The translations under genes and the position numbers were made by a program. The notes beneath the pieces are model-generated. The model was not told where the DNA came from. It worked only from the letters and a program-made list of their open reading frames with translations, and did no database searches. A stretch of DNA of 64,000 bases. Source: Monocercomonoides exilis PA203 (lineage: Eukaryota; Protista; Preaxostyla). Location: positions 62,001-126,000 of the forward strand of contig LSRY02000054.1 of NCBI GenBank assembly GCA_001643675.2. Direction: 5' to 3'. Shown here piece after piece: positions 2,009-64,000 of the stretch (its first letter is position 1; each line of letters starts with the position of its first letter).

Positions 2009-2029
2009 AGCCAAAAGAATTGAAGCTAC

Positions 2030-2889: not shown

Positions 2890-3365
2890 CTAAAAAAAAT
2901 GAACAATATTATTTGAATTATTAAATAAAACATTCAAATAAAAGCTGAATGAAAACCTTTTGATATGTATGTTTTCCATCTTTGTCAAACTTGTGGGAGT
3001 AATCTACGCATAATTTCAAATTCCAGGCACATTCTATGCAATGAAAATTTTAAATCAGATAAGAATTTCATCTATCAACGAATCTCAATTTTTTGATGAA
3101 AGAAAATCGAAACACACCTTGTTCATTTCATTAATAAACAATTGCAAAGTTGTTCAATCAAGTGAAACTCTTTTTCGTTGAAAAAATGAAATTTCAATTT
3201 TGATCAAAAAATTTGATACATAATTTTTTGAAAAAAATTACATCTTCTCATTAAGAAGTTTGTTATGAGCCAACAACCATCGTTGTGAAATTAATAAGTT
3301 ATCATTTGTATTATGGGAACGGAGTGTTTTTTATTAACTTTCATGGGACATTTTTTTGATCTGTG

Positions 3366-3389
3366 GCGACTTTTCAAAAAGAATTACCC
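3366..3389. mobile_element. Right terminus remnant of the 240-bp foldback element (subfamily A)
   Basis: GCGACTTTTCAAAAAGAATTACCC followed by ATAT matches the right ends at 47046, 57306 and 58527. No intact left end is visible. Confidence 0.6.
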
Positions 3390-6666: not shown

Positions 6667-7866
6667 TATGGTGTGTAAAAAAATCACCCATTTATCTAAA
6701 ATAGTCCATCAAGCTTTAACTCTTTTGAAATAAGTAAATTCAAATCTATTTGTTGCGAGAATAAGTGCATTGTGGAGAAATTTTATTGTTTGATTTTTTG
6801 ACAAAAATGATCAAATTATGTTCTATTTTATTCAACCAAAATATCCAACATTTGCGACTTTTCAACAAGATAAACCCATGGATTAAAAATTTTTTATTAT
6901 CTTTTCAATATCACAACAAAGAAATAATCAACATTAATGTTTGCACATTTCAAAAAAATGAAATTCAAAAATATCACAAAAAAGGTGTTTGAAATCTGTT
7001 TTTTTGACACAGATTGAAAGCTATAAGAAGAAGTTATACATTATGTATCACCAGCTTCTTGGGAGATCTCCAATTGGCTTGTAAATATCCTTTCAAATTT
7101 TGCAAATATTCGAAATTTCTATTCAATAATTGAATTAAAATACAAAATCAAACAACAAAATTATTTTCTGAAACAAACAAGAAAGTATTGTAAATGAAAT
7201 GAATTTCATAAGAAACTTTTCATTTATTTGCATCTTCAAAAAAGTTAAAATAACAATTGGATCATTTTTTTCCATTTAAGAAAATAATAACGATTTGTTC
7301 CATACGTTTTCTTAAATGTCATCATTATTAATCTTTCATTATAATGTTAAGAAATACAGAAAAATAAAACAAATGAGAAATAATAGGAAATAACATCGAA
7401 TGGAACTAATTCATATTTCAAATAATGTTGTTCCAATTTGAAAATAAGTCCCATGAAAAATATAACATATGAAATTCTTTTTTTTGAATCGTTAGAAAAA
7501 CATTGATAACAAACAGATATAACTGATAATTGAATGTTTTTATTTCATTATTACACACCTCTTTTTAAGAAATTTGAATCAAATTTCAATTAAATGTTCA
7601 CAACTTTAACATTTAAAACAAAATTAAGATGATAAAAATACAATTTTATTTGTTTAAAAAAGATAATCAAATCGTGAAAACTTCGAAATGAAAGAAATAT
7701 CACTTATAAAAAAATGCGATTACATTTTTCTCATCAAACTGAAAAGTGAAAAACATTAAACAATTGTTTCATAGTGCATCCAATAAAAAAAGAATAAAAA
7801 TAGCATAAACACAATAAATATCCCATTATAACAATTAACAATAACATAACAGCAAAATTTTCAGCT

Positions 7867-41600: not shown

Positions 41601-44252
41601 ATTTTGAACAATTCGAGTGATTCAATTGTGAGTGCATCTCAAGTGGCTGTTAAGAGTTCTCCATCTGATGGAAATATCGAGACATCCAATTTGAATGAAG
41701 AAGCAGAAAAGAATGAAGATTACAGAATTGAAGATAAATCATCACAAACAGCTTCTGTTCAACAGCAATCAAATTCAACAGAGTTATCGTCTTCAATCAC
41801 AAATGACAATTCTTCTTCTAATTCATCCAATTTGTCCAGTGATAACAGCAAAGAGAAACTGGAAAAGCCAAACTCTTCTGAATCATCATCTTCTTCTGAT
41901 ATACACGATGAAGAACACAAAAAAGAACAAACTGAAAATGAAAGCTCAATTTCAGTTGAGATAAATCAAAATGAATCTTCCACACACATCATTCACCCTT
42001 CTTTCTCTCCTCCATCTCCTTTCTCTTCATCTGATGAGACAGAAAACACAACATCATCTTCTTCTGATTCATCTCATGTCACTTTCTCTCTTCCTGTGGA
42101 TACTTTAGTATCATCATCTTCTTCTTCCTCTTCTTCCTCCTCTTCTTCCTCCTCTTCCTCTTCTGCTGGCTCTGCTATTTCTTCATCTTCACCTGTTGAT
42201 CACTCTGATACTTCCTCATTTCATTCACCCACTCAAACAACACCATCTTCATCTTCCTCCATTTCTTCTGTTGAACGCAATGCTTCCTCTGATTCATCAA
42301 GTTCTGCTCAGAATTCTCCCTCTTCTTCCTTATCTGAGTCAAAAGACTCGTCTCATTGTACCTCAGCTTCTCCTTCTGACAATATGCCATCCTCACTTCA
42401 TCCGTCGCAGCTGACGATGAATTCAAATGCTCTGTCTTCTCTTGTTGATGAGTTCACCACCACCATTTCGAGAAGTGGTGTTGCCTTGTACATTCCATTT
42501 GAGTCATCTCATTCTCTCCACCACAACACCAGCCATCACCAGCGCTCTCATTCAAAGGCATCTGACTCTTCTTCTGTCAGCCACTCCACTCGCTTTGTTG
42601 CCATTCCCATTGAGACAGACAGCTCTTCTGCTGAAACACATCACTCGAATCCTTCTTCTTCTGATGGAGATGATGTTGTCATTCACTCAAACACATCGAC
42701 ACTTTCAAAGCATGCAACAAAACCAAATGATTTTTCAATAGTTGTTTCAAAAGGTTCAATTCACAATTATGAAGCTGGTTCAGATTCAACTAATGTTTTG
42801 AAAGAAATGTCTGATTCTTCTTTGAACTCTTCATCTTCTCCAACAAACGCTTTAAACGCATATTCTCTTCATTCAAATGATTCATCACAACAACAACACA
42901 CTTCATCCTCATCCTCTTCATCCTCTCCTTCTTCCTCTTCATCTCAACAGCCATCCAACTCTGTTTCTGTTAAAGCAGACAATTCTGAAAGTTCTTGTTT
43001 GCCTCCTTCATCCTCTTCCATTCCATCTGCTCATTCATCAGCAGATCCACTTTCTCCTCTCCAGTCACTTCAGAGTACAACCATCTCCATCTCATCAGCC
43101 AACGATATTGTTCAGAATCTTGTTCCTCTTTTGGAATCAGCACTTGGAGGTGAGCATAAACTCAAGCTCACAATATCCTCTTCTGACTCTTCTTCTTCTT
43201 CTTCTTCTCCAAACTCTTCTCATTCATCTGCACAACTTTATTTCACACTTGAAAATCAACAGTCACATTCACAAAAAGATGATATCAAGAATGACATTCG
43301 CCTTGAGTCTTCGAATTGCTCAGAAGGGGTTGGCCAAGCTGTTCATTCTGGTCGTCTGTTGGCATCTCATTCAGCTTCTTCTAATTCTTCTGATGATTTA
43401 CACAAAGACAGCGAAGGAACATCTGCTCCTGCTTCTTCCGTTGTCACTTCTGGTGTAGCTCCTCCTTCCTCTCCAAGTGTAATTACTGTACCTGCTTTTC
43501 ATTCTCGTCCAATTATTCCTCCTCTTCGCACCAAGTCTTTGTCTCCTCAGTCGTCTAATTCATCATCCTTGTCATCCATGTCATCTTTGTCATCCTTATC
43601 ATCCAGACATCCATCAACATCACGTTCATCTTTTTCTTCCTTTCGAGGAATAAACTACACTGACAAAGGCGAATGTTCTCGCAAACCACTAACCGAACGA
43701 AAGTATTCTTCTTCATCGCAGTTGGAATCAAAGGATTCATTCATCAAAGCAAATTCATTAAGAAAGCATTCTCCTTCACATTCAAAAATCCAGCCTCAAT
43801 CATCCAATTCCAGTTCTTCCACAAACTCGTTCCATGTGCCTTCTTCGTCCTCTCAAACAGACGAAAATGTGGAAAAAAGAAAAATTGAAAGAATTCCGTG
43901 GAAAGAGATTAAGAAAGCAGCCTTGTTGGAGCAAAAGAGGAAAAGGCAACAAGCTGCACAGCAAGGGGAATGCTCTTCAGATTGGTTTAAAGAAGGAAAT
44001 GTCGAATTTCAGTTACTGCTCAAACCAGAACAATTGTCTGAAAAACAAATGGAAATGAAAAAAACTGAAAGCTCATTTGAAGAAGATCAACGTTGTGAAG
44101 TCGAAATTCCTTCAAAAGATGCTTCAAATACATTACAGTCACAGTCCATGAAGAAAAATACTGATGTTTCAGACATTGAGACAAATTTGCCTTTGAACTC
44201 GACTTTTTCAGAAGAGAATAGACAAATTATATCTTTTTCAATAAATACATAA
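37206..44252 (+). CDS. NEK (NimA-related) Ser/Thr kinase, NEK1/3/5-like catalytic domain with long Ser-rich/acidic tail (2,348 aa)
   Basis: The first ATG at 37206 gives MEQYTRDRMIGRGNYG, followed by VLKEI, HPNIV, MDYCDGGDL, HRDLKSQNVFL, KLGDFGIAK, VGTPYYLSPE and ADIWSLGC. The ORF-track start at 37089 is a TTG. Confidence 0.93.
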
Positions 44253-45269
44253 AGGTTATATATTTTTTAATTTTAATTTTTTCAAAAAATTTCGAAATGC
44301 CATATGTTGTCAAAAATAGTTGAAAACGTTGAAAATTGATTGTTTTAAATTTAGTTTTTTTTCAATTCAATTCCGGTCTTTTTCAAAAATAAATATCAAA
44401 TAGATGTCTTGTTTGAAACATTGTTGTTGTTGAGCTAATTTTCTTTTTTAATAAATGACATTTCTAGAAAACAAAGTTCTTTTCAAAATTTTGTGAAAAA
44501 ATTCTTTTGTTTTATTAGTGGTGCATTTTCTTTTTTAATTTTTTCAATGAAGAGTAACTTGACTATTATTTCATTATTTTGATATTTGAAAACGGTTTTT
44601 CATTAAAATATTTCTGAAAATAGATAGTTGAAAAATTCGTTCATTCAGTTGTCAAAATTCAAACAAAATCTGATAAAAAATACTTTTCAAATGAAAACTT
44701 GAATATGTTAACAACAGTTTGAAATTTGACTGATTAATATCATAAACACATTAAAAAAAAAAAGATAAATATAAAATAATCCAAAAATGGTTATTTTAAA
44801 CTTTGGAAAGACAATCATGATGTGAAATATTTTCTCATAAAACTCAAAATGATAAACAGTGGGTAAAAAGGCCGGTCCATTATCTCATTTCAACAAAAAT
44901 GCTAAGGTGATTATAACTTTATTTTTTTGATAAAAAGTATTTTTCAAAAAAAAAACTTTTCCTTATAATTTATTGTTATTCATGAAAACAGAAATTGTCT
45001 TTCAGACACATAAGTTGATTCTAATGAGACAAGCTTATTCGAACAATTTATTGAAAAACAGTTATCTCGCGTGCATAATTGCGTTTCATCGGACAATGCA
45101 AATTCTTGTTTTTTGGATCTAACACACTTTAACATATATTCAATTCTTTTATAAAATAGTTAAAAGGAGCGTAAAACATTTTCAACAAAATTGTAAAAAA
45201 ATTTAAAAATGTGACAATTTATGGATTTATTTCTGTTTAGGGTTGTTGAAAATCAGATAATGATCAAAA

Positions 45270-46591
45270 ATGGCATACCCAAGAGAAAAAAAATCTTCTG
45301 TTTTCGATAAAACTTGTTCATTTATAAAAGAAGAGATAGCATGTGATTGGTTATTTCATCACATTTTGGAAGATAAAAGTCCAGAATGCAGAATTCATAA
45401 GAAAAAGAAGGTTTTGGTGAAAGAAGGAGTATTTTATGGGTGTTGGACGTGTTGGAAATGTGAAACAAAAAAATCAATGCACAAAGGAACTAATTTGGAG
45501 ATAACAAGATGTGAAATTAAAAAGTTTTTACTCATCATCTTGTTTCTTTAGCTTGGGATTTCGCAATCAAACATCCAAAAAATGCTTAATTTGCATGATT
45601 CAGTTGTTGGCAATTGGAGCTGTGTGTTAAGATGTGCTTGTATGGATTTTATCAACAACAATCCAATCAGACTTAGAGGTGAGGTGGTTATTGTAGAGAT
45701 TGATGAGTGCGAATGGAGACGAAGAAAATATTAAAGGGGTAGAAAGAAAAAGCAAATTTGGATTTTTGGTGAGATAGAAAGTACAGAAAATAAAAAAGAA
45801 ATTTTGAAGAAATTCTGCAAAATTGTTCCTGACAGATCGGAAAAAACTCTTCCTCCGATTATCAGACAGCACATTTTTCCAAGAACAATTATCATGAGTG
45901 ATAAATGGAAATTTTATTCATCACAGGAAGCATTCGGATACATTCATAAAACAGTCTGCCGTAAGAGAAATTATGTCTATCCGGTGAGCGGTGCTTGTAC
46001 AAACACGATAGAAAGTATGTGGTCGCATTTGCGGGAAAGTTTTTCAAAACATGGTATCAGAGAACGGTTTTTGGGGGATTATCTGGCATTTTGGATGATG
46101 AAAAATACAAAACAACTAGCTTTTCAAGATGTTGTGCACATGATCGTTTTACAGAAAGGAAGAGGAAATGGAAGAACAAATTTTGGAAGAACAGGATGTT
46201 AAAGAAGACAACGAATTAATATACGAAAATATTCCAAATGTCTAAATTTATTTGAAAAGTTCCTTTTGTTTAATTTTCAAATAAAATAAAAACTTCATAT
46301 TTCGATCATATTTCTGTTCCAACGAACGAAACCTTTCAAAAATGGATTTAATAACATTACCAAGATTTTGTTTCAATTTGGGTGTAGTTTTATAAGAGAA
46401 AACAGAAATTTAATCGAAATATGAAGTTTTCATTTTATTTGAAAATTAAACAAAAGGAACTTTTCAAAAAAATTTAGACAGATATTGAAAGTTTTTATTC
46501 TAAAGAATCTTCCAATGAGAAAATTGATGAATCAACGGATTGTTTGTATTTATCTGATGGTGCTGATTCATCGAAATGGGTGGATGAATAA
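45270..46591 (+). pseudogene. Merlin/ISXO2 (IS1595-family-like) DDE transposase pseudogene 1
   Basis: One frame carries a Zn-ribbon-like region (CRIH...WTCWKC), VIVEIDE, RRRKY*RGR..QIWIFG, IIMSDKW and HKTV...TNTIESMWSHLR. In-frame stops are at 45549 (TAG) and 45732 (TAA), with a probable frameshift near 46150. The acidic tail is split by a 240-bp insertion. Confidence 0.9.
46240..46479. mobile_element. 240-bp palindromic element, subfamily B
   Basis: GTCTAAATTTATTTGAAAAGTTCC...GGAACTTTTCAAAAAAATTTAGAC, flanked by AAAT/AGAT. Removing it restores the transposase tail frame. Confidence 0.85.
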
Positions 46592-46806
46592 TTGCAGTTG
46601 AATATTTTTTTAATTTTTCAATTCTTTTTCACTGTCTCACAATCAAATATTTTTGAAAAAAAGAAAAATAAAAAAAACTTAATTTTGATAAACTTCAGCG
46701 ATTTTTTAAAATCCAAAACATTAATATAACTGATTAATAAATATTTCTATTTGTATACAAATTAATTTCTCAATATCAGATATAACGCGAAATGGAAGTT
46801 TTATAT

Positions 46807-47046
46807 GGGTGATTCTTTTTGAAAAGTCGCAAATGTATAATTTACAAATAATGTTAAATCTTCATATTTTTCTCAAATTTTTGTTTCAGCTCACAAATCT
46901 CCTCAAGAATGTTTGAAATAGCATTATCCAGAAATTGATTCCATATTAGTGAAGTTTGGTGTTTGTTAACAAAAATTTAAGCAAAATGTGAAATTCTTGA
47001 TTTATTTGAAAATTAAACATTTGCGACTTTTCAAAAAGGATTACCC
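46807..47046. mobile_element. 240-bp palindromic element, subfamily A
   Basis: ATAT-GGGTGATTCTTTTTGAAAAGTCGCAAATGT...ACATTTGCGACTTTTCAAAAGGATTACCC-ATAT. Confidence 0.88.
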
Positions 47047-47449
47047 ATATTTGAAACACCAATAAAGTGATTCAATAAGTGGGAGAAAGTTAACTCGTCT
47101 GTATAAAGATATTTTCTGATTTTTGTTTGTTTTCTTGGTTTGTGAGAACAAAACGGTTACTTGAAAAAGCTTTCGGTTTATTATCTTTCAATAGAAATTT
47201 CAATGATGTGTTATAAAGAATTTATTTTTGTGGTGAATGAAAAGAAATGAAAGTGCACGAGGATTTAAAAAATTTTAAATATTTCTTAAAAGTAAAAAAA
47301 ATGGAAAAATGTGAAACAAAAATTACATTGAACACTCATTCTCAGATACAGATTAACCATCTCCTGCTCCCAAACTGTTTCAACTGCTGCTGGAATCAGA
47401 GTCTTTCACAAAGAGGGAAATTGAATCATTATCTTTATCAGTTTAACTT

Positions 47450-48255
47450 TATTCATCATCGTCTCCTTTTTCAACTGTGGCAAGTGTGTTCATTATTTCT
47501 TCAACAAAATTCGTGAAAGATTAATTCTTTGATAAATGAAACATGAAATTCGAAATGAAATCATCAATGAATTTATTTTATTGCAAAGTTCAACGAAAAA
47601 ATGTTCGAAATCTCAATCTCAAACACTCTATTCAAATTGCACAATTACCAATAATCTGGTCAACAAAATGATATTTGTGACACATAATCAGGTGAGAGAA
47701 GTTGTAATCTTTTAGGCTGTTGAAAGCGAGTCATTCATCGCTGTAAATTGAAATCATTTGTTTGATGAAATCGAAAAATGCAGAAATTATATTCTTTTTC
47801 TTTTGTTCTTCACATTAATAATAATAAATCTTCCTCCTCCATCTTCACGCTTTCTTTCTATTCCTCCAAAAAGCCAGACTTGTGCCTTTTTCCTTCCTTT
47901 ATGAAATTTTCTTTTTCTCAACATAGCTTCGTCGACCTCCACTATATGACCCTCTCCTCTAATTGGTTAGAAATTCTTCAAATAATTTTTGAAGAAATAG
48001 ATGTGCAATGGAAAAACCAGAACATAACTTTCTTTCTGTTGATATTAAGCAAAATGCTTGATTGAGTGATGCTCAATTTTGGAGAAAAATACAGAAGAAT
48101 ATGAAGAAGTTTGTGGACTTGAATTTTTGAATATTTGAACGAAGTTCCATCAAAAATGCTTATTGCTTTTCCACATTAAGAACATCTATATAACCTCATT
48201 GTCTCCGATCTGGTATGTATATGCATTTTATTCTTGCATTTTAAACATCGTAAAT
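47450..48255 (-). pseudogene. Merlin/ISXO2 DDE transposase pseudogene 2 (not in ORF track)
   Basis: Manual minus-strand translation gives CLKC...YRCS*CGKAISIFDGTSF and PIRGEGHIVEVDEAMLRKRKFHKGRKKAQVWLFGGIER (VDE at 47936-47928), then IYSDE*, HLIMCHKYHFVD and *IECL. There are several stops and frameshifts, and the ends are approximate. Confidence 0.85.
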
Positions 48256-48539
48256 CCTTATTTTGAAGAATGCTCCCAAAAAAGTTAAGAAAGAACAAGG
48301 AAGGCAAGAGAAAGTTTCATTCATTTTGTTTATTTCGCTGTTTGAATCGTTCAAACAGGATGTCATAAGGATGGAAATATACAAAAAATTAAAAAAAATC
48401 AATATTTATATATTTGTTAAATACATCAATAATAAAAAAACTTGAACATAAAATAATTAGACACATCATGTGCATGGTAAATATTTATGAAAAATTTGGT
48501 GTTTTTTGACATTATTATTCACAGAAAATATGAATCGAT

Positions 48540-50891
48540 GGCAAGATCCAAATATATGGACCTCGGATTTTTCTGATTTCTTTTGAATAAAACAATAGAT
48601 AATATGATGTTAATTAACAGAAAATTACTTTCATTTGTCGAAAATTAGATTTAATGAACTTCACAACAGAAAATTTGATTTGTCCCATATTTTTATTTTA
48701 ATTATGCAGTAAACAAAAATTTGCTGGCAAGTGGGATGCACTGAGAAAATGTTTTTGAATCTTATTTGATCTTATTAAATGCATCATTTTCATTAACTGA
48801 GTGAACGTTGATTTTTTTTTTCCTTAAAAATAGTCGTTATTTTCTTGTGAGAATTTCATTTGTGTGTGTTACAAACGTATTACATTCGAAAACATGTTTG
48901 ATGTAATTTTGACACTCTTTTTGTAATATATTTGTTGAGAAATTATTCAATATATGTTTCGTTTTCGATTTTTCATTTCATATAATACTGTATTTCAACA
49001 TTTATTTAATCACATGCATCTGACGCTTCTTATAGAAGAAGTGATGAAAAATTTCCAAGATCACGTTGGAAATGGATTGGAACAGCAAAAATGTCATGAA
49101 TGCAGATGATCCTGGTTGTGTTTAAATGCTTGATGTAAACACAGAGTTGATTGTCTTGGATGCGCTTGTGGTGTGTGACAATCTGTGGAGGCAGATCAAT
49201 AAGACACACTTCCAGATATGCTTTGACAAGCATGGAAATGCACCGCAGAATGAGATCAACATGGTTTGCCGATGTAAACAATTGAAATAACCAATGAATT
49301 TTCTTGATCTGATTTTTGCTTACCCGAAAGACACAATTGAAATGAGTTTTCTGGAAAGGAGAAACAGGGATGTTTAATGGAAGTGTGCAAATGTGGAGCA
49401 GCCAAACTCGATCGTTGGCTATGGACTTAAGCGTTAGTCGCGCAAGGTGGAATGCAGGCTGATAGAGAATGAAAAAAGAATGGCGGATCATGAGATGGAG
49501 TTTGAGGACATTAGTATGCTGTAGCGAGGAAAGGCAGAAACCGAGGTGTCAGATGCTTGGAGGATCGGGCGAGAGAGGAAGAGAGTTGTTGAGTTCTGAG
49601 GAGCCACAATGATGATGATGCTCACACTCCTGTTTGAAGAACTGTGGGAAAAGAACATTGAATTCAATATAGATACAAAGGTGGAAAAGATACGTTGGAT
49701 GGATGTGAGTATTGGACGATGAAAAGAAATAGTTGAGGAGGAAAAGATATTTTGAGAAAATTGGACTAATGAAAGGAGTTTTTCAAACAGATCACCATAG
49801 TTTTTTTAAGGACAATTTCTTATTAATGTTATAGCTGATGGAACATTAAGGCTTTTAAAAACAGAATTGAAGGATATGGAAAGAAAAATAGTTGAAGAGG
49901 TGAAGAAACAAAGATTGAAGCATCTGATTATTGAAATAATTGTGCTTGTTGCTCGACGATGAAAGTGAAAACATTAATTGTCAGATTTGTGAGACATTTC
50001 TAGTTATTATTGCAAATAGGGTGTGAAGGATTTTGATATGGAAATGATGGAGATGTTTCCGAGGTGGCAACGGGAAAGAGCAGATTAAGTGGCTACGAAT
50101 GAGTTTTTATGTTTAGGTTTGAAAAAAAAGTCAATTTTTAATGTTGTGGTTATCTAATTTTTTCTCTATGAGATTCTATTTTTTTTGAACTGACACTATT
50201 AAAATATTTTGTTGAAAGGAATGTTCAATTAAAAAAGTGTAGTTCTTTTGTTGCAAAATTGTCGAATGAAATATGTGCAAAATTCAATAATTAAATTTTA
50301 TTTTTTTTAATTATTCAATTAATATTTTCAATATTCGCTCTTCAAATCATATTTTTTTGTAATCAAAGCTTTTAAAAAAAATAAAAGCTCTTCGAAATGT
50401 TCAAAAGGATTCAAATGATTTGTTTTCATTGCAAGAAAAAATTGAGAGATTTGGGAAGAGCATCAAACCAATAAAATATGTTAGATTAATAATTTCATAT
50501 TCATGGTCATTCAATTGCCTAATTTGATTATTATTTAAGTTTTATAAAATATCTGTTAAGGAAACATGCAAATGAAATTCTCACAAGAAAATAACGACTA
50601 TTTTTAAGGAAAAAAAAAATCAACGTTCACTCAGTTAATGAAAATGATGCATTTAATAAGATCAAATAAGATTCAAAAACACTTTCTCAGTGCATCCCAC
50701 TTGCCAGCAAATTTTTGTTTACTGCATAATTAAAATAAAAATATGGGACAAATCAAATTTTCTGTTGTGAAGTTCATTAAATCTAATTTTCGACAAATGA
50801 AAGTAATTTTCTGTTAATTAACATCATATTATCTATTGTTTTATTCAAAAGAAATCAGAAAAATCCGAGGTCCATATATTTGGATCTTGCC
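48540..50891. mobile_element. Non-autonomous Merlin-like TIR element with 323-bp TIRs and captured cargo
   Basis: TIRs at 48540-48862 and 50569-50891 (GGCAAGATCCAAATATATGG...) are almost identical, with one mismatch seen. The flanks GAATCGAT / AAATCGAT match 7 of 8 as a TSD. Confidence 0.85.
49050..49525 (+). pseudogene. Host gene-family fragment carried inside the TIR element
   Basis: A plus frame with stops reads ...NLWRQINKTHFQICFD...NFLDLIFAYPKDTIEMSF...DV*WKCANVEQPNSIVGYGL. This resembles the DLL..Y.S.TI.VS...CG...P motif of the fragment at 2603-2854. Confidence 0.45.
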
Positions 50892-51112
50892 AAATCGATT
50901 AACACTTGTTTCAGCCTATTAATAATTGAAAAATAAATTTGAATCCAAGTATTAACTATACGTTTTGTTCCCACTCAACATTTTTTTTCTCAGTTCCATC
51001 ATTGTCATCGTTAATGAGGTTTTTTTTACCAACTTCATAAAAACTTTTTGTTTGCATCTTTCTGTTTGTTTTTATCTGGAAGGAAGAAAAATACAATTAT
51101 TTTAAATTCATG

Positions 51113-51351
51113 ATATATATTTTTTAGAAAAGTTCCTTTTGTTTAATTTTCAAAAAAAATGAAAATGTCAGATTTCAATCAATTTTCTGTTCTCTCTCAT
51201 GAAACTTCACAATAATGGAAATAATATCATTGTTTTGGTTTTGTTTCCATTTATGTGAAGTTTCGTGAGTGGGAACAGAAAATTGTTGAAAATTTGAAAT
51301 TTAAATTTTATTTGGAAATTAAACAAAATGAAGTTTTCAAAAAATTTAGAT
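51113..51351. mobile_element. ~240-bp palindromic element, subfamily B, degenerate
   Basis: GAAAAGTTCCTTTTGTTTAATTTTCAAA...GGAAATTAAACAAAATGAAGTTTTCAAAAAATTTAGA is homologous to 46240-46479. Confidence 0.75.
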
Positions 51352-52286
51352 ATATGGAATGTTTCAGTTTTTCGACATCAGTGATATGGTCTTTCAGGTG
51401 TTATCATTGATTAATAAGGCGCTTTTGCTAAACTTTTTGCGATTAACTTAACAAATATAATCTGTTCACTTTTTTGACAGATGTTTGAGTTTGTTTAATA
51501 CATTTTGCATTCAAATTAATAATGTCTGTTTGCAGACATGAAAATCTTTGTAATTTTGAAATCTGAAAAAGTTTCAAAAAATCAGAAGTGAAACAAATTA
51601 TTAAAAATTTGTCCAATAAAAGCTTGAAAAGCCTGGTTTTCACTCAACCTTTTGATTGTTCCTTTGGATTTTTCAAATTGGTTGAAAATGATATTTTAAT
51701 GAAATTGCTTTACCAAAAAATGGATTTTCATATTATCAAGTTCATTTCTGGATGTTGAAACTTTCATTTCATTTAACCACTAACTCAATTCTTTGTTTAT
51801 TTTTAGTAACCTCAAAGAAAAAGCTTATGTGTCGAGTGTAGAAACAGGTTTTTTATGGAAATAAAGCACTTTCATTTTTGTTGCTTTAAGTATTTTGTGA
51901 TTTTTTCATGTGGTAAATGATCTGCAATATGAAGTTCTTGATATTGTGAAGAAATGTCCATGGAAATGGATTCAACGTTGATTTCTTTGAACGGAGGTTT
52001 TGTGGTTCATACCAATGCATAGACTTCCATCACAGGGCAAACACTCGTTTCAAAGAAAGAGGACTTAAACTTTGATAGAGCTGATGGATCTGCAACTGTC
52101 TGAAGGAGTGCTTCAATCAGTGAAGATCTGTTTCCAACAATGAAAAACTGGTTTGGTGTTCAAAACTTAAGGCAAAGAGTATTTTTCAAATGAGATAACA
52201 CAAATGAATTGAATTGTTGAAGTAGACAAGCCATGATTAATTGGAAATATTTTAAAAATAATCATTTTTTATCACTTTCAACAGTA

Positions 52287-55235
52287 TTCAGAATATTTCT
52301 TATCGTAACTTTGTTCGAAGAAAGATCTTTTTTTTCATAATTGTGGTTTGAAATGAAAAAGGCAAAAATACATGTTTATAAGTGCAGTGTGAAAGAATTT
52401 TGATTGAATTTTTGAAAACCAAGTTACTTTGAGAAAATCTTATAAATTTCATTATTACATTAATTTATTGAGTTATTATTAATATTTTATTTATTTAATA
52501 TCACGACTTCCTACAAGTCCAGTTATTGATTATTATAGAATATTATTTGAGTGTGATTTATGATATTACTTTTTTTCTTTTTTTTTCTTTTTTTTTTTTT
52601 ATTTTATTTTATTTTTTTTTTTTTTGTGATTTGAATAAACTTTCACCTGAAAATGAATGGATTATTAATTCAAAAAATTAAGAAGTGAAATTGATGAAGT
52701 TATTATTTTGTGTTATATTTTTTTTAAATTTTTATTTATGCAATGAATAATCCATACAGAATTGTGAAGATTTGTGAGGTCTAAGTAGAGATTTTTTGTT
52801 TGCAATAATGAGGCAGAGATATCGCAGATGAGCTGGCTGACAAGAAAACAGATATTTTTAAAGTAACACAAGTGAAAGAGGAATGTGCGTGAATATCAAA
52901 AATAAATGGAGGTGTGGATAATTATTTTTATTTCATTTATTTTTATTAAAAAAGGATTTAATAAGGTATTTAAAGTCAATCCGCACACGTAATTTGAAGA
53001 TAGACAGCTTTTGAAACGAACCTGAAATGCTTGCAGAAGGCAGCAGATGAATTGCGTATAAAGAAATGAAGAAAAAGAAATGAAAGAAATGAATTGAAAA
53101 GATAAAATTTGCAATGCTCATATCGCGAAACGAAAAGATGGAGTCGAAGTGATTGAAGAGAGAGAGCGAAATTGATGATAAGGCAGAAGGAGGAGTGCTG
53201 CGAAAGTTGAGAAGAAGAAGGTAATTTTTCTGAACTTCAACGAAAAGAGAAAATTTGATGAAGAAGAATAAGATAAAAGAAAATTTGGGAAATGATTTTT
53301 TGAGGGACATTTGAAGAAAAGTGGGAAAGGGGGAAGTGGACGAGATATTTATATGAGGAAATTGATATGGAGCGCGTCTGTTGAGTTGAAGGGGTGACGA
53401 TAGAGAAGATGACTACGACGACGACAACAACAACAACAACGATTTCGAAGAAGAAGAAGAGAAGGAAAATAAGGAAGAAGATGGTGATTATGAATGCATC
53501 AATGCTTATTGGACTTTGGTTTTGCAAATTTAAGTTATTTTGGTGGAGAAGCAAGTTTTTTCTGATGGGAGAATAGAAAAAGACCTGCCTTCAGAAAAAA
53601 GCGGAGAAGCAAATTAAACAAATAACGATAACAGTCTTATTCGGAAGTGCTCACACAATGTTGCACTTTCACTTCGCTTCCAACTCTTCAAGGCACCTGA
53701 AGGCACCTGAAGGAGATGTGAATTTTTAAGGACAATTTAAGTTTCAGAGCAAAAACTATCTTAACAAAATGATGCATTTGAAGAAGCAGCAGCAAAAGAA
53801 GATGATTATGGATAATCGAAACAAGCTTCTTGGATTCAGACATTGTTATAAGAGTCATTGTTTCCATTACGAAAGAAAAGAAGAATCAGATAATTTGAAC
53901 TTTGAAGATAGAAACAGCGAAACATCCAGTTCTTATTCAGAATCAACTTTTAGCAGCAACATGTTAAGTGACTCGAGTTCATCCTGCTCCAATCACTTGC
54001 TGTTAAATCATTCCTCATTGTCTTCTCATTCATCATCACCATCTTCTTCCTTATTTTCCTTCTCTTCTTCTTCTTCGAAATCGTTGTTGTTGTTGTTGTC
54101 GTCGTCGTAGTCATCTTCTCTATCGTCACCCCTTCAACTCAACAGACGCGCTCCATATCAATTTCCTCATATAAATATCTCGTCCACTTCCCCCTTTCCC
54201 ACTTTTCTTCAAATGTCCCTCAAAAAATCATTTCCCAAATTTTCTTTTATCTTATTCTTCTTCATCAAATTTTCTCTTTTCGTTGAAGTTCAGAAAAATT
54301 ACCTTCTTCTTCTCAACTTTCGCAGCACTCCTCCTTCTGCCTTATCATCAATTTCGCTCTCTCTCTTCAATCACTTCGACTCCATCTTTTCGTTTCGCGA
54401 TATGAGCATTGCAAATTTTATCTTTTCAATTCATTTCTTTCATTTCTTTTTCTTCATTTCTTTATACGCAATTCATCTGCTGCCTTCTGCAAGCATTTCA
54501 GGTTCGTTTCAAAAGCTGTCTATCTTCAAATTACGTGTGCGGATTGACTTTAAATACCTTATTAAATCCTTTTTTAATAAAAATAAATGAAATAAAAATA
54601 ATTATCCACACCTCCATTTATTTTTGATATTCACGCACATTCCTCTTTCACTTGTGTTACTTTAAAAATATCTGTTTTCTTGTCAGCCAGCTCATCTGCG
54701 ATATCTCTGCCTCATTATTGCAAACAAAAAATCTCTACTTAGACCTCACAAATCTTCACAATTCTGTATGGATTATTCATTGCATAAATAAAAATTTAAA
54801 AAAAATATAACACAAAATAATAACTTCATCAATTTCACTTCTTAATTTTTTGAATTAATAATCCATTCATTTTCAGGTGAAAGTTTATTCAAATCACAAA
54901 AAAAAAAAAAATAAAATAAAATAAAAAAAAAAAAAGAAAAAAAAGAAAAAAAGTAATATCATAAATCACACTCAAATAATATTCTATAATAATCAATAAC
55001 TGGACTTGTAGGAAGTCGTGATATTAAATAAATAAAATATTAATAATAACTCAATAAATTAATGTAATAATGAAATTTATAAGATTTTCTCAAAGTAACT
55101 TGGTTTTCAAAAATTCAATCAAAATTCTTTCACACTGCACTTATAAACATGTATTTTTGCCTTTTTCATTTCAAACCACAATTATGAAAAAAAAGATCTT
55201 TCTTCGAACAAAGTTACGATATGAAAAATTCTGAA
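52287..55235. repeat. Large near-perfect inverted repeat: arms 52287-53496 and 54027-55235, 530-bp spacer
   Basis: Identical mirror ORFs occur at 52933..53310(-)/54213..54590(+) and 52896..53114(-)/54409..54627(+). The arms match through microsatellites. No TSD was seen. Confidence 0.95.
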
Positions 55236-55411
55236 CCGTGCCTAAGACACATTTGATTTAATGTTTTCAGTGATTATCCATTAATGGAAGAGCAAGATGA
55301 GTTGGAGATGGTCTTGATTGGTTGATGATATTCAAATAAGACTTATTTTTCATAATGGATTATAAAATTTCTTTTATGATCCATCATGAAGAAACAATAA
55401 TGAAGTGAATA

Positions 55412-55861
55412 CAGTCTTAACCGGATATAATCATATCGAATATAATCACATTCGTTTATAGTCACATTTTTCCATGCACCGACATTTTTGTCAATTTTTT
55501 CATTCATTTCACATCGCATATTGTCACAGGGCGGAAAATATATAATCACACTTTTTATCATAATGGGTGATTTTTTCATTGAAAAATCGATTTTTTGATC
55601 AAAAATCTCAATTTTTCGCGTTTTCAAAAATGTGCTTAAATAAGTAAAAATAATATGCATTGATGCAAAAAATTAATTTCGCAAGTGAAAAATGCGTTTT
55701 GATGAAGAATATTCAAAAATGAAAAAATTAACACAAAACAAATTATATGGAAAATTAATTTTTATTTTTTTCTGTGTTAAACAGCATCGTATATTATCAC
55801 AATCGGATATAGTCACAAAAAGTTGTGCAAAAACCGATGTGATTATATCCGGTTTGGACTG
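55412..55861. mobile_element. pogo/Tigger-like (Tc1/mariner) MITE, 450 bp
   Basis: TA-CAGTCTTAACCGGATATAATCATATCG...CGATGTGATTATATCCGGTTTGGACTG-TA, with internal repeats of TATAATCACA/TATAGTCACA. Confidence 0.88.
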
Positions 55862-56569
55862 TATTGAAAATATAATGAGAAGAGATATCTGAAGAAAGAT
55901 TTTTTGTAGGTCAAAGAAGAAAGCTTGGCAATGAAAAGCCATCATAGCAAACGAATATTTACAAAAAATAATTAGCAACTTTTGGAAGTGATTGAGTTTT
56001 ATTGGGATTTTTCTCCAAATGAAAAATAACAAGTGTTAATGTTATTTATCCTATTGAAAAAGATAATCTGTTAATATTGTGAAAATCAGAAGAATAGTTT
56101 TCGTTCTTCGAATTAAGAGACGATATAAAAGAGAACACAGAGCTCACTTTATCAGAAATTGGTGCTTCAGTTTCTTTATCTCCTTCAATCTCGATATTGG
56201 AACTCTGTGACAAAACATAAGAAAAATGAAACAATGACAAAATGACTGACAAGATTGTTATAATATATCAGAAATGGAATATTAAACGTTTACACAATAT
56301 TTGATTGTGCAAAAACATTATTAATGAATCAATGTTAAACAATTCAAGATATTTTGAAGATATAAGTGATAATTTTTGAAATCATTTAATTTCAATCTGA
56401 TATTTCGACTTGAAAATTTGATTTTAACATTAAGAATATGCGCTGAAAAGGAATAATGCAATTTTGTTGATATTTTTTCTCTTGCATTTATCTCAGACAT
56501 TGGCCTATAGTAACAATTTTAAAATTTCACATTTGTATCAGAATAATTTTAGTTAATTCCATTGAATGG

Positions 56570-56800
56570 AGTTATGTTCAGCTCCCCGAAAACAGTTATG
56601 ATTTCAAAAATAATCACCCATATTTTGATCAAATTTCTGTTCACACTTACTAATTAATTCAGGAATGAATATAATTGTGTTATCAAAAAAAACTTACAAT
56701 TAAGTGAAGTTTCGCGAGAATGAAAGAAAATTGGATTAAAAGAAATATTTATTGTTTCGTTTAAAATTTATTAAAATGTTTCATACAAATTATTTATGCC
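56570..56800. mobile_element. Highly degenerate copy of the 240-bp palindromic family
   Basis: CATATTTTGATCAAATTTCTGTTC and GTGAAGTTTCGCGAG match internal motifs of the copies at 46240, 51113 and 59933. The termini are not recognisable. Confidence 0.45.
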
Positions 56801-57066
56801 CAACGAAAAAAAAAGATAATATTTCATTTTTAATTTTTTCTAAACTTTTATGATTTGTTTCATTGTTAAATGCATTGTAATTAAAAGTTTTGAATATATA
56901 ATATCTTTTTTTTCCATTCGCATTTCTTAATCTTATCGTTTTTTGTGAGAAGGATGATTTTCAAGAGGAAAAACTGTTTATTTCGTATTCGATTGATTTT
57001 TATTTTTATTTCGATTATAGAAATCTAATAAGAAACGATGATTGTTTCGAAGATTGATGAAAAGAT

Positions 57067-57306
57067 GGGTAATTCTTTTTGAAAAGCCGCAAATGTTTCA
57101 TTTCGAAATAATTCAAAATCTTCATATTTTGCTCAAAATTTTGTTAGCATCCACAGACCTTCACAAATATTATATCTATTTCATGATAATGCCATTTCAT
57201 AAATACTTTTGTAGATTCATGAGCGGTCACAGAAATATGAGCAAAATATGAAAATTTAGATTAATAAAGGAATAAAACAATTGCAACTTTTTAAAAAGAA
57301 TAACCC
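57067..57306. mobile_element. 240-bp palindromic element, subfamily A, with diagnostic AGAT/AGAT TSD
   Basis: AGAT-GGGTAATTCTTTTTGAAAAGCCGC...CAACTTTTTAAAAAGAATAACCC-AGAT. The 4-bp direct repeat is non-palindromic. Confidence 0.88.
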
Positions 57307-58287
57307 AGATTCATCTTGAAGATGATGGAAAAATTGTACGTGGAACGATTTCAAAGTTCGACATTAAAATGACAGCAATCGACTGGAACAAAGATAAAAA
57401 AAAGACAAAGAAGATCTATCCTCTTCATAACACAAACATTAAAAGTCGAATATGCGGTTTTCTGGGGAATTGGATGTGTGGGGAAAGCTGATTTCTCAAG
57501 CACGCTAACATTTTACATGAACAATCTCCGCATTTAGCTGAAGTCACATCGAAATTTAACATCTTGTTTTCTCCAATTTTGTGAGTTTTCTAAACTTTTT
57601 TTTATTGCTCCAATCATTTCTACAAATTGTTTAACAACTGTTCCAACATTTTTAAAAGTTCCACTAGATAAAACAAAGTTGGTTGTTGAATTTTGTTTTG
57701 AGCAAGAAAGCTATTTGAGGATGAAGAGTTAGAAAAGAAAATGAAAAAATTATTAAAACTTCAACAAGTGAAACCCGAATAAATTTGTTCAATCTCATAA
57801 CATTTATAAATTACAATAACCAATTGTGTAAATTTTTGTATGAATAACATTAAAAGTGCAAAAGATAATTTCATTTAAATGAAAATAAAATTTTTGACAA
57901 ATCCATTTCTCTTTTATCATTAATTAATTATTATTATATTTATGAAATACTTTCTAGTAATGCTTTTTAAAAATTGTTGCCACAATTTTAATCATCATTT
58001 GACATTTATGAGACTTGTTAAAAATCTGTTTTGTGTGTGATATTAACCAAAAATAACAACTTGATTAACAAAGCAATTTATTAATTTTTTTATAAAGCAT
58101 GATTATCTTCATAAACGAAATTAAGATAATTTAAAGTGGTGATATCAAGAAATTGAAAAGTCAATTGAAAAAAGACAAAAAAAGTATTTACACATATAAT
58201 TCTGATAATACCATAATTGATAATAATAGTATGTAAACAAACGTTAATAACAATGTTTCGCAATAATTGTTTGATATTCATAAATAT

Positions 58288-58527
58288 GGGTGATTCTTTT
58301 TGAAAAGTCACAAATGTTTAATATTCAAATAAATCAAAAATATCATATCTTGATTAAATTTCGGTTCCCGCTCATGTAACTTTACCAAAGCGGAGGACAT
58401 AATTTGACAATGCTATTTAACACATTCCTGTGAAGTTGTATGAGCGGGAACCGAAATTTGATCAAGATATGAAATTTTTGATTTATTTGAATATTAAACA
58501 TTTGTGACTTATCAAAAAGAATCACCC
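58288..58527. mobile_element. 240-bp palindromic element, subfamily A, best-preserved copy
   Basis: ATAT-GGGTGATTCTTTTTGAAAAGTCACAAATG...CATTTGTGACTTATCAAAAAGAATCACCC-ATAT. The ~90-bp arms are nearly perfectly complementary. Confidence 0.9.
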
Positions 58528-59932
58528 ATATGTTTTTTTTTTATCTGATTTTCTTATTAAATAACAAACGAGGTAGTTTTTTATTCTATATTAATGCTCT
58601 TTTCATATAAGTTGAAAATATTGAAAATACATGTTGTAATTATTCTTTTTTCCTATTTGTTTCATTACATATCACATTTTCATAAATATACGTGATTCAC
58701 AATTGTAATATCATAGAAATTATCTGGTTGAATGCAACATAATATATATTTTGATGTTTTCCATATACAAATATCCAAAAATAAAGGAAATGAAATGGAT
58801 AAAAATTACATGGTTTAAAAAACAATATTTTCTTTAAAATTATTATAGATTATTTGACGAGTTATTTATTTTTGTTTTCTCAAAAAAAGTTCACAGTATA
58901 GGATTTCTTTAAATGATAAAAACATTGAAAATGTTTAAAAAATTAAAGTCGAAGGAAAAAAAAAAATGCGTAACAAAATAGAATTTTGTTTTTTTAAAAA
59001 AATAACAAAAAGAAAGAATTAATAAGATCTTCAACTGAAAGGGTGAAGGATTTTATTACAATTTGGCAAATGATTTTTAGAATAAACTCAAAAATAATTT
59101 TTTCAAAAATCGAAAAAACTCTTATTGTAAAAATTCGAAATGTTTTTCTAAGAAAACAAAAAACTTTTAAATCAGTCAGAGATAAAATAATGTTTTTTTT
59201 CAAGAAAAGATAGCATAATTGATAAAAACTTCCATTTCAGTAATATTTAAAACCACTTGAAAGAAATGTAACAAAATCTTTCTTGAAAAATGGATTTTGT
59301 GACTTATGATGAGACTGCAAAAATAGCATCAACCATTGAAGACATAAATGGAGATGCTTCTGCAACTCCGTTGCCTGAAGGAAATTTTTCATTTCCTGCA
59401 TGTCCATCACCATTGTTGAACATTCCTCGTTATTATCTGCAAAGTTCCACTAAGTTTTGTTGAGGATTAAGAACATATGGAAACGATGTGTTTTACACTT
59501 GTCTCAAAAGGGGTTTGCCATCTTCACAGGAAATGATCAAAAGTCATAGGTGGTCGTTTGTTATGTATATTTTGTTCTGTCAAGCATATCATTTTGAACC
59601 ATTTCCGCTTGACCCAAAAGCAATACATGGATTTGTGAAACTTCTTGGAATTGCATTTGATTATTCTTATGATTCCATTGTATCAGTCATAGAACCATCA
59701 ATTTTCAAAATTTCTGAAATACGGACTATGAGGTTTGTTTCATCAGATGTCAAGTTAATGGTTAAACAAGCAAAAGCTGAAGTTAAAAAAGCAAAAGCAA
59801 TAAAGGAAGAAGAAGGAGGAGATGATTTTAATATACTAAAATTCAAAAAGGAACCATGCATCGTTGGGATATGAAAAGAATTTAGAGTTTAATGTCTGAT
59901 TGGATTTTTAAAAAAACCAACTGAAATAATAC

Positions 59933-60170
59933 GAAAAAATATTTTTTAAAAGTTCCTTTTGTTGATTTTTCAAATAGAATAATAATTTCACATTTCGATC
60001 AAATTTCTGTTTCTACTTGCAAAATGTTGTTGTTATGATTATAAAATCTTGACAATGTTATTATTTCCATTTTTGTGAATTTTCATGATTGGGAACAAAA
60101 ATTTGATCGAAATATGTATTTTTTATTCAATATGAAAATTGAACAAAAAGAACTTTTCAAAAAAAGGAAC
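59933..60170. mobile_element. ~240-bp palindromic element, subfamily B, inserted in the recombinase gene
   Basis: AAAAGTTCCTTTTGTTGATTTTTCAAA...GAAAATTGAACAAAAAGAACTTTTCAAAAA is homologous to 46240-46479. Confidence 0.78.
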
Positions 60171-60225
60171 AATATTATTGTTCATTTTTGCTCTTTCAAC
60201 TGGAGCACGAAGTTATTTTTGTTCA

Positions 60226-60499
60226 TGTGGGACAAAATATTTGACTTCAGGCATTTTCATCGAAAAATTATTCATCTAAGATGATCATTATGAGATCAAA
60301 ATACACAATAAAAATCAGTTTATTTTTTGATATTCCTGAAATGTTGGAAAACTTTATGTTATTTTATCAATGATGTTAGCTTTCAGATTTCAAAATCAAA
60401 TTTATTTTGAAATTTGAGAAAGAGATCTTAAGTTATGAGTGAAGAAATTTTTCTATGCCTTGTGCAAAAAACGCTTGAAAGTCCGTTTTTTCCCCCATA
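60226..60499. mobile_element. Degenerate foldback MITE inside the recombinase gene
   Basis: The start TGTGGGACAAAATATTTGACTTCAGGCATTTT resembles the reverse complement of the end, TATGGGGGAAAAAACGGACTTTCAAGCGTTTT. Confidence 0.45.
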
Positions 60500-60501
60500 T
60501 A

Positions 60502-61526
60502 CACCAAAAATAATTCTAATTCGAAAAAAAATAATTCAATTTCGTAATTAATAATTCGAATTCGAAAAAGAATAATTCGATTTCGGAATTAATAATTCAA
60601 AATCGAAAATTAATAATTCAATTTCGTAATTTATTAATTCGATTTCGAAAAAGAATAATTCAATTTCGTAATTTATTAATTCGATTTCGAAAAAGAATAA
60701 TTCAATTTCGAAATGAAAAATATTTTGATTTGTGGAATGAATAACTTGTGTTTTGTGTTTTGAATTCTCATTATTTTTATTTCATCAGTTCACTTTGCTT
60801 ATCTATATTTGAAAAATGATGCATTTTCTTCAAATAATTTTCATTCATTTTGATTGAAAATATTTTGTTTTGAAGTATATTTGAAAAGAAAATGAATTCA
60901 TTTTTGTATTTAAAATTGATGATTTTAATATATTTACCAAAGTAAAAAAAATATTTTTATTGGTAAAAAAATTCTTGTTTTTTGTTATTCAATAAACGTG
61001 ATTGAAATTTAAATATTTTTATTTTGTTATTCAACAGAATGAATTTTTTTATTATTTTAATCATTTGAGTGATGATTTTCGAAAATGAAAAAATTTTCAA
61101 AAAATCTATTTTTTGATTGTTTCATTTTTAAAAAACAGTTTTCTTTGAGTAATAATATTTGTTTGGAAAAAAATAACTTGAACTTTTCCGAAATCCATTC
61201 TCTAGAAAAATAGAAAATTTCAGTTTTTAATGAATTTCGAAATTGAAATATTCATTTTCGAAATTGAATTATTCTTTTTCGAAATCGAATTATTAATTCC
61301 GATTTTGAATTATTAATTTTCGATTTTGAATTATTAATTCCGAATTTGAATTATTTTTTTCGAATTCGAATTATTAATTCCGATTTTGAATTATTTTTTT
61401 TCGAATTCGAATTATTAATTCCGATTTTGAATTATTCTTTTTCGAAAATGAATTATTAATTCCGAATTTGAATTATTTTTTTTCGAAAATGAATTATTTT
61501 TTTTCGAATTAGAATTATTTTTGGTG
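60502..61526. mobile_element. Foldback-type element with CACC...GGTG termini, TA flanks and tandem-repeat TIRs (1,025 bp)
   Basis: TA-CACCAAAAATAATTCTAATTCGAAAAAAAATAATTC...GAATTATTTTTTTCGAATTAGAATTATTTTTGGTG-TA. The arms are built of ~21-bp AATAATTC(G/A)ATTTCG units. Confidence 0.85.
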
Positions 61527-63427: not shown

Positions 63428-64000
63428 AACCAAAAATATTTCAAATTCGAAAAAAGTAATTCATTTTCGAAAAAGAATAACTCAAAATCGGTATTAATAA
63501 TTTAATTTCGTAATTAATAATTCGAATTCGAAAAAGAATAATTCGATTTCGGAATTAATAATTCAAAATCGAAAATTAATAATTCGATTTCGGAATTAAT
63601 AATTCAAAATCGAAAATTAATAATTCGATTTCGGAATTAATAATTCAAAATCGAAAATTAATAATTCGATTTCGGAATTAATAATTCAAAATCGAAAATT
63701 AATAATTCAATTTCGTAATTTATTAATTCGATTTCGAAAAAGAATAATTCAATTTCGAAATGAAAAATATTTTGATTTGTGGAATGAATAACTTGTGTTT
63801 TGTGTTTTGAATTCTCATTATTTTTATTTCATCAGTTCACTTTGCTTATCTATATTTGAAAAATGATGCATTTTCTTCAAATAATTTTCATTCATTTTGA
63901 TTGAAAATATTTTGTTTTGAAGTATATTTGAAAAGAAAATGAATTCATTTTTGTATTTAAAATTGATGATTTTAATATATTTACCAAAGTAAAAAAAATA
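63428..64000. mobile_element. Second copy of the CACC foldback element, truncated by window end
   Basis: It begins TA-AACCAAAAATATTTC and has an expanded 42-bp unit. The interior ~63700-64000 matches ~60650-60950. Confidence 0.88.

Follow-up and report, generated by a model that had tools for sequence, protein, structure and literature searches.

Several described transposon groups resemble the repeat considered here. First, insect Sola1_NA MITEs are non-coding, measure 194-709 bp (248 bp in Heliconius), use a 4-bp AWWT/AWDT target, start with GG and carry TTTTGAAA at end positions 11-18 (PMC3845634). Second, in Dictyostelium fasciculatum and Polysphondylium pallidum, Sola2 elements have G...C ends and make ATAT, AAAT or ATTT duplications (PMC3627910). 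Third, size uniformity is already known for other MITEs: Drosophila mariner MITEs are unexpectedly uniform, for which a constraint on size or structure has been proposed as a putative cause, and their long inverted repeats formed when one end was replaced by a copy of the other (PMC4161770). Fourth, Merlin elements are abundant in Monocercomonoides and have GG ends, and all seven families (F1-F7) make 8-bp duplications (PMC8101967). In the M. exilis assembly, unclassified repeats make up about 35% (PMC8767320). The window analyzed here, a 64-kb stretch of M. exilis DNA, contains a 240-bp repeat that is a real, non-coding, non-autonomous class II element (MITE) with terminal inverted repeats.

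A 240-bp element that duplicates 4 bp on insertion

The family has two subfamilies, with GGG...CCC and GTC...GAC ends; no strand is assigned to any of its copies or fragments. The GGG...CCC subfamily is represented by copies B (46807..47046, flanks ATAT/ATAT), C (57067..57306, AGAT/AGAT) and D (58288..58527, ATAT/ATAT), the last with arms that are 96% alike over 80 bp. Copy A (46240..46479) has GTC...GAC ends, with AAAT on its left (46236..46239, + strand) and AGAT on its right (46480-46483). The first-pass annotation had given these termini and flanks for the four copies; all were reproduced, and each copy measures 240 bp. It had also listed degenerate copies at 51113 and 59933, and both belong to the GTC subfamily: copy E (51113..51352, about 239-240 bp) is decayed, with neither its ends nor its duplication clean, and copy F (59933..60172) is decayed, with eroded ends and no clean duplication. 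The six copies, which lie within about 14 kb, align over 240 columns without a gap at 58-77% identity (both strands checked). A profile search of the window returned the six full copies (E <= 2e-48), one remnant (E 2e-11) and one weak match (E 0.83), while the reversed window, used as a control, gave zero matches; an Rfam search with the element also gave zero matches. Two further fragments are isolated GGG-type right ends, one at 3350..3389 (about 25-40 bp, with ATAT next to it) and a decayed one at 6838..6877. The E 2e-11 remnant is internal (56620..56741, with the profile match starting at 56617; profile positions about 55-180). Of the remnants proposed earlier, the one near 3370 is thus a lone right end, but the one near 56600 is the end of a 256-bp sister element that adjoins this remnant.

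The 240-bp element duplicates 4 bp on insertion, as proven by paralogues without the insertion. For example, a Merlin paralogue contig (runs X1 and X3) provides the empty site for copy A: it skips 281 bp and has 37 other letters in their place, a net difference of 244 bp, or 240+4, and AGAT is single in the paralogue. Two further cases are insertions within published Monocercomonoides Merlin alignments (PMC8101967 supplement file 4, in part). In LSRY01000552, a 240-bp insertion is flanked by ACCT/ACCT, and ACCT is single in the six sister rows that span both flanks (by eye); in LSRY01000493, the flanks are ATTT/ATTT, and ATTT is single in its three sister rows. A perfect 4-bp duplication is seen in 7 of the 10 copies whose two flanks are visible (6 from the window, 4 published), against a 1.2% chance per copy of a random 4-bp flank match; one of the others matches at 3 of 4 bases, and two decayed copies do not match. 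At position 46480, 69 contigs (X1) and 75 contigs (X2) exit the element into unrelated flanks, with an agreement of 0.46-0.47 and the consensus ATAT. The empty sites therefore back the earlier view that the repeat is mobile and duplicates 4 bp, but the target is wider than the A-N-A-T that had been proposed: those seen are A-N-N-T, mostly ATAT, and include ACCT, ATTT and AAGT.

Could the neighboring transposases be responsible? Copy A interrupts the 3' portion of a broken Merlin transposase gene of the IS1595/ISXO2-like DDE type (45270..46591, + strand; PF12762, E 4.7e-14), which has an M. exilis relative. A second broken Merlin transposase gene (47330..48390, limits approximate, - strand) agrees with P0001 at 35 of 60 residues. 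The two genes are convergent, with copy B between them. A recombinase-like remnant also lies near the 240-bp copies (by eye). That copies A and B are flanked by two Merlin genes, in a genus where Merlin is plentiful and has GG ends, would fit mobilization of the element by the adjacent Merlin transposases. This is extremely unlikely: Merlin is rejected as the partner because its duplications are 8 bp in all seven Monocercomonoides families, which the 4-bp empty sites contradict. Moreover, the Merlin ends seen (GGCA...) differ from those of the element, and the element interrupts Merlin copies, i.e., it is a passenger. Membership of Merlin itself would call for a duplication of 8-9 bp, against 4 bp in the element. 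The first-pass annotation had found no partner transposase in the window; it overlooked the two broken Merlin/IS1595 genes, although these are hosts rather than partners.

Length and the sister family

How constant is the length? Net length change was 0 in 17 of 23 contig pieces, and 6 of 23 deviated by 1-3 bp, in one sample from one study in which the pieces were the longest, at least 80% alike and perhaps repeated across runs. One published copy counts to 238 bp. Gaps in the contig pieces numbered 30 per 701 substitutions, compared with 8 per 136 in Merlin paralogues, and mostly canceled out. Hence 240 bp is the modal length rather than a fixed rule, as had first been supposed.

A sister family shares the ends and target of the 240-bp family but lacks the long palindrome. 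Its relatives are 254-257 bp, about 16 bp longer. The sister element in the window (56364..56619, no strand assigned; 256 bp, flanks ATAT/ATAT) has short inverted repeats only; its right terminal 18 bp are near-identical to the 240-bp family, and its left end is eroded. No 10.5-bp helical periodicity was found, and the difference between 240 and 256 bp is a non-integer number of helical turns. A size constraint on the 240-bp element, as suggested at first, is plausible, but the length is not absolute and the sister family exceeds it by about 16 bp despite sharing its ends.

Hairpin and arm similarity

Copy D is predicted to form a hairpin with z = -24.65, a value equaled by 0 of 200 shuffles. 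The stability of the predicted hairpin, and the recombinase-like remnant close by, are what single-stranded hairpin transposition by an HUH or tyrosine enzyme (REPIN-like or Helitron-like), with direct selection on the fold, would lead one to expect. We consider such a route very unlikely, since the exact 4-bp duplication suggests a staggered DDE cut and the long palindrome is missing from the sister family, whose ends and target are the same.

Concerted evolution of the two arms had been proposed for the family as a whole; support for it is confined to some lineages. Arm homogenization is clear in 2 of the 6 window copies, A and D, for which the nearest neighbor of each arm is its own partner arm. 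In B, C, E and F, the two arms of a copy do not group together, and a tree of left and right arms from the window copies, the check suggested at the outset, supports own-arm pairing only in D. Copy D and LSRY01000162 are close: they have a core in common, with 13 differing positions on the left and 10 on the right (counted by eye). Six of these positions are mirrored (1.3 expected; P = 2e-4, presuming equal variability at all sites) and five are compensatory. The latter (5, 23, 36, 48 and 65) lie well inside the arm, and mirrored changes are spread along the arms of the element. There are also seven compensatory changes between B and D, compared with just 0-2 in the within-subfamily pairs B-C, A-E, A-F and E-F. 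Both sides changed in 27 of 100 pairs, against 18.0 +/- 2.8 in shuffled data; this control ignores relatedness, and the division into two subfamilies accounts for much of the signal. In LSRY01000493, both arms are 1 bp shorter. The assembly is 454-based, however, the positions lost fall in A-rich runs and the copy contains an N gap, so a read error may explain this mirrored loss.

These patterns suggest that, in some lineages, sequence is probably copied from one arm of the element to the other. A different history would need no arm copying: a few symmetric founders and selection for matched ends would account for the arms, and few sources with a low net indel rate would keep the length steady. 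It bears solely on the arm and length steps and would leave room for a Sola partner. The absence of arm pairing in 4 of 6 window copies, the 0-2 compensatory changes in the pairs B-C, A-E, A-F and E-F and the 1-3 bp length deviations in some copies all favor it. It sits poorly with the five compensatory positions between D and LSRY01000162, the seven between B and D, and the mirrored 1-bp loss in one published copy; we regard it as possible but doubtful. PMC2775673 contains nothing on arm conversion.

Transposase class and comparison with known systems

What moves the 240-bp element? Sola elements make a 4-bp, AT-rich, AWWT-like duplication, and the ANNT target, mostly ATAT, agrees with this. 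Over 18 positions, the insect Sola1 MITE end matches the element's end at 12, among them the TTTTGAAA stretch at 11-18 (P = 6e-4, post hoc). Among the few Sola ends compared, the Repbase end rule (positions 1-11, at most 1 mismatch) fails for the insect Sola1 end, which matches 5 of the first 11 positions. The amoebozoan Sola2 end starts GTTAAATTTTTTT, compared with GTCTAAATTTTTTT in the element, and the match requires a 1-bp offset. Sola2 has 5'-GRG ends, which the GGG subfamily fits and the GTC subfamily does not. Amoebozoan Sola2 ends also start GAA, GAG or GTT, and the P. pallidum (PPa) 5' end resembles that of the GTC subfamily, again with a 1-bp offset (PMC3627910). The initial suggestion of a Sola-type element, based on the 4-bp duplication and G-R-G ends, is supported by published ends and targets. 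From the resemblance of ends and target, in comparisons that are post hoc, AT-rich and divided between Sola1 and Sola2, a Sola-type transposase encoded elsewhere in the genome probably mobilizes the element.

Pfam scans of the window and motif scans of viral and prokaryote sequences detected no Sola transposase. A solitary end, in LSRY01001357, offers a lead to the partner. In the window, six read-through frames of 1-7900 gave nothing in Pfam, and 51 short frames of 44250-64000 (frames of at least 62 aa plus one 59-aa Merlin piece) gave sub-threshold noise only. Scans for Sola2-like protein motifs gave 1 + 5 viral and 18 prokaryote-genome matches, treated as chance; a transposase context was absent in the 6 viral matches and in the 17 of 18 prokaryote-genome matches that were re-found. 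An end-motif scan gave 0 matches in viral contigs and 26 in metagenomes, the latter never with an inverted partner above 15/20 or a full-length match, and these too were treated as chance. No Sola record for oxymonads was found in the literature searched, and the terms "Sola", "MITE" and "transposase" are absent from the M. exilis supplements.

The partner could instead belong to another, or undescribed, DDE superfamily that makes 4-bp duplications. No partner was detected, the ends on which the class assignment depends are short and AT-rich, and there is no single best fit, Sola1 or Sola2, for both subfamilies. We nonetheless consider this unlikely, given that G-starting ends and an ANNT target are shared with insect Sola1 and amoebozoan Sola2. 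Named candidates also mismatch: piggyBac must have TTAA, whereas the element uses ANNT, and Ginger2 has ends starting TGT and the target TATA, whereas the element's ends start with G. Kolobok likewise targets TTAA.

Our preferred reading, which we hold to be fairly probable, is a MITE that inserts at A-N-N-T with a 4-bp duplication, likely by Sola-type DDE cut-and-paste driven from elsewhere, and whose arms are likely re-matched by copying. The transposase would recognize, at each end, the terminal G and the TTTTGAAA motif (positions 11-18) and make a 4-nt staggered cut. Gap repair following excision would raise copy number, and, as the 100-bp palindrome is repaired or replicated, fold-back or template switching within it could transfer changes to both arms. 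Elements of about 240-257 bp may be moved best, which would explain a steady length despite sequence drift. A more tentative extension, which we think is rather less than an even bet, is size gating by an oxymonad Sola-type transposase: passengers unrelated to one another would converge at 240-257 bp, and one lineage would retain a near-exact 240-bp fold-back form through 30-40% sequence divergence and altered terminal bases, because repeated arm copying would carry changes into both arms and length variants would fail to amplify. If true, this would provide a natural system with many copies in which intra-element conversion could be measured, as well as an oxymonad Sola record.

What are the implications? 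The 240-bp family and its sister would put a name on part of the unclassified repeats of M. exilis and hint at a Sola-type transposase that has yet to be annotated. With its many same-length copies, the 240-bp family could be used to test whether size limits MITE mobilization and whether copying homogenizes long inverted repeats. With respect to known systems, the mariner target is TA, unlike the ANNT of the 240-bp element. Drosophila mariner MITEs are also longer, at 460-970 bp (PMC4161770, in part). Insect Sola1_NA elements have inverted repeats of 28-36 bp, compared with about 100 bp here, and a known autonomous partner, and the target of the 240-bp element also accepts ACCT and AAGT (PMC3845634, in part). 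Amoebozoan Sola2 elements have short, imperfect inverted repeats of 12-22 bp; members of the DFa-1, DFa-2 and PPa-1 families span 12-14 kb and carry transposase and Fanzor genes (PMC3627910). The Merlin families, from the same genus, have 8-bp duplications and unrelated ends; their copies are hosts, and the 240-bp element sits as an insertion in their published alignments (PMC8101967, in part). The 240-bp family does not seem to represent a novel type of system. Rather, it is of an ordinary kind, a MITE family that is undescribed, judging from the published literature, and whose length is unusually steady.

Copies, fold and mobility

All six copies of the 240-bp family in the window align without gaps, with identities of 58–77% in the better orientation. 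For the four copies with intact ends (A, 46240–46479; B, 46807–47046; C, 57067–57306; D, 58288–58527), measurement bore out the 240-bp length, ends and flanks claimed in the first-pass annotation, and the copies it called degenerate, E (51113) and F (59933), are indeed both decayed. There are two subfamilies, GTC (A, E and F) and GGG (B, C and D), and this split has tree support of 100/99. Every copy is palindromic, its ~100-bp arms enclosing a core that is looser and oriented; the predicted fold of D has z = −24.65. A profile search of the window returned the six copies, one remnant and one weak match, and no matches when the window was reversed as a decoy. The 240-bp element is also present in published Monocercomonoides PA203 scaffolds.

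The element is mobile and duplicates four bases. Copy A sits within a broken gene for a Merlin transposase (PF12762). From a paralogous contig (sequencing runs X1 and X3), 281 bases of the filled site are missing and 37 different ones are present, which makes the filled site longer by 244 (240 + 4) bp; AGAT is present once in the empty paralogue. This empty site is a paralogue ~10% diverged rather than an allele, and the four runs represent one sample. Unrelated flanks follow the right end of A in 69 X1 contigs and 75 X2 contigs, and the consensus of these flanks begins ATAT. The summed contig depth of the arms is ~1000 times that of single-copy flank, a ratio that does not equal copy number. 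Similarly, supplement file 4 of PMC8101967 (in part, by eye) contains a Merlin row with a 240-bp insertion flanked by ACCT/ACCT and a second with the element flanked by ATTT/ATTT, the sister rows being empty in both cases. Two more full copies in the available part of the published data are each 240 bp with ATAT/ATAT (by eye). The duplication is perfect in 7 of the 10 copies with both flanks, matches at three of four bases in one, and is absent in two. Thus, the proposed 4-bp duplication is upheld by the empty sites, but its restriction to A-N-A-T is too narrow: the target is ANNT, as ACCT and ATTT indicate.

Possible arm copying and element length

Concerted evolution of the arms, also proposed earlier, is supported for some copies only. 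Over 80 bp, the arms of A are 94% alike and those of D 96%, and they are mutual nearest neighbors in both; the arms of B, C, E and F, however, are 75–81% alike without mutual pairing, and the tree supports arm pairing for D only. Changes on both sides occur in 27 of 100 pairs versus 18.0 after shuffling, a control that ignores relatedness, with the subfamily split providing much of the signal. A better test is the comparison of D with a close relative that has the same core, on the published scaffold LSRY01000162. The left arm mirrors 6 of the 10 right-arm differences, and five of the six are compensatory, at positions 5 to 65 (P = 2e-4 on the assumption that every site is equally variable). 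These mirrored differences favor occasional arm copying, although selection acting on symmetric founders is a possible alternative. With arm copying, one arm would now and then have been copied onto the other in source lineages, and copies would decay plainly after insertion.

Is the length fixed? Removing 9 of 32 listed contig rows (4 self or unique-flank, 5 Merlin) left 23 element pieces, together containing 701 substitutions and 30 gaps. Net length change is zero in 17 and 1–3 bp in 6, and all four Merlin paralogue pieces counted are altered, by 1–3 bp. One copy in the available published sequence is 238 bp (by eye) because each arm is 1 bp shorter. Given these exceptions, 240 bp is a strong mode rather than the absolute length first claimed. 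A sister family, represented at 56364–56619 (256 bp, ATAT/ATAT) and by elements of 255, ~257 and ~254 bp (the last extrapolated) in the available parts of published scaffolds, agrees almost fully over the terminal 18 bp and also has the ANNT target, but not the inner palindrome. Two unrelated interiors of like size suggest that a transposase common to both families prefers a certain size. MITE size uniformity has been interpreted likewise for Drosophila mariner (PMC4161770, in part). Helical periodicity was looked for and not found.

Genomic setting

The window contains serine-rich kinase genes of great length. Among named relatives, those closest to its kinase (52% identity) and to its Merlin transposase (43%) both come from Monocercomonoides exilis, an oxymonad. 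Together with the PA203 scaffolds noted above, this points to M. exilis or a species close to it as the host. On the minus strand, 7867–36783 is one unbroken, serine-rich reading frame; it has 9638 codons and encodes a kinase domain at the N terminus. A distinct 363-bp near-perfect palindrome (93%; 6306–6668) with internal 18-bp repeats is unrelated to the 240-bp family.

The region from 44250 to 64000 is AT-rich and full of repeats. An element of 2.37 kb (48533–50900) has inverted repeats of ~325 bp (99% alike) that start GGCAAG, and it is flanked by a near-perfect 8-bp repeat; it resembles a Merlin-type element that is non-autonomous and carries a fragment of a gene. A 1.2-kb inverted duplication (52287–53496 and 54027–55235; 99.7% identical, 530-bp spacer) reflects either recent fold-back or an artefact of assembly. 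At ~55410–55866 there is a probable TA-flanked CAGTC...GACTG element of ~455 bp, with relatives in Monocercomonoides scaffolds; judged by its ends, it is probably mariner/pogo-like. Copy C breaks a short reading frame of ~70 codons (57034–57066/57311–57490), which stays in frame across it once 240 + 4 bp are discounted (by eye). Two halves resembling a tyrosine-recombinase gene (59300–59870 and 61549–62244; FGFHSLRSG motif, by eye), neither with a Pfam match, lie on either side of copy F and 41-bp tandem arrays, and are possibly a Crypton- or DIRS-like remnant. Tandem arrays of 41–42 bp, inverted and direct, occupy 60500–61528 and 63426–64000, where one stretch of 445 bp occurs twice (96%).

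Relationship to known transposons

No description of the 240-bp family was found in the literature, most of it judged by listing alone, and the family is unnamed in the available portions of the PMC8767320 text and supplements. PMC5199201 and PMC10294476 contributed general background, and PMC2775673 offered nothing that bears on the family. It is best filed as an undescribed addition to a known kind of MITE, and may already be catalogued in Repbase or Dfam. Because its length stays steady over deep divergence and its arms show signs of copying, its value is that of a system for tests and not of a new mechanism.

What moves the element? The first-pass annotation saw no partner transposase in the window. 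It overlooked the broken Merlin gene around A, but Merlin is excluded as the mover because the Merlin families of Monocercomonoides duplicate 8 bp (PMC8101967, in part). Consistent with the annotation, no Sola transposase was found by Pfam in six read-through frames of 1–7900 and 51 short frames of 44250–64000, and motif scans for Sola2-like proteins in viral contigs and prokaryote genomes also yielded none. The TTTTGAAA motif is kept in both subfamilies and in the sister family. A GRG rule is usually given for Sola2 ends; GGG fits it and GTC does not. An insect Sola1 MITE has the target AWWT/AWDT, and its end matches the 240-bp family at 12 of 18 positions, TTTTGAAA at 11–18 among them (PMC3845634, in part), a post hoc comparison. 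The target duplications of amoebozoan Sola2 elements are ATAT, AAAT or ATTT; in a comparison that is again post hoc, one of these elements starts almost as the GTC subfamily does (PMC3627910, in part). Neither the Sola1 nor the Sola2 comparison follows the strict Repbase end rule (PMC4455052, in part) without a gap. The element acts like a Sola MITE, and it likely belongs to that group.
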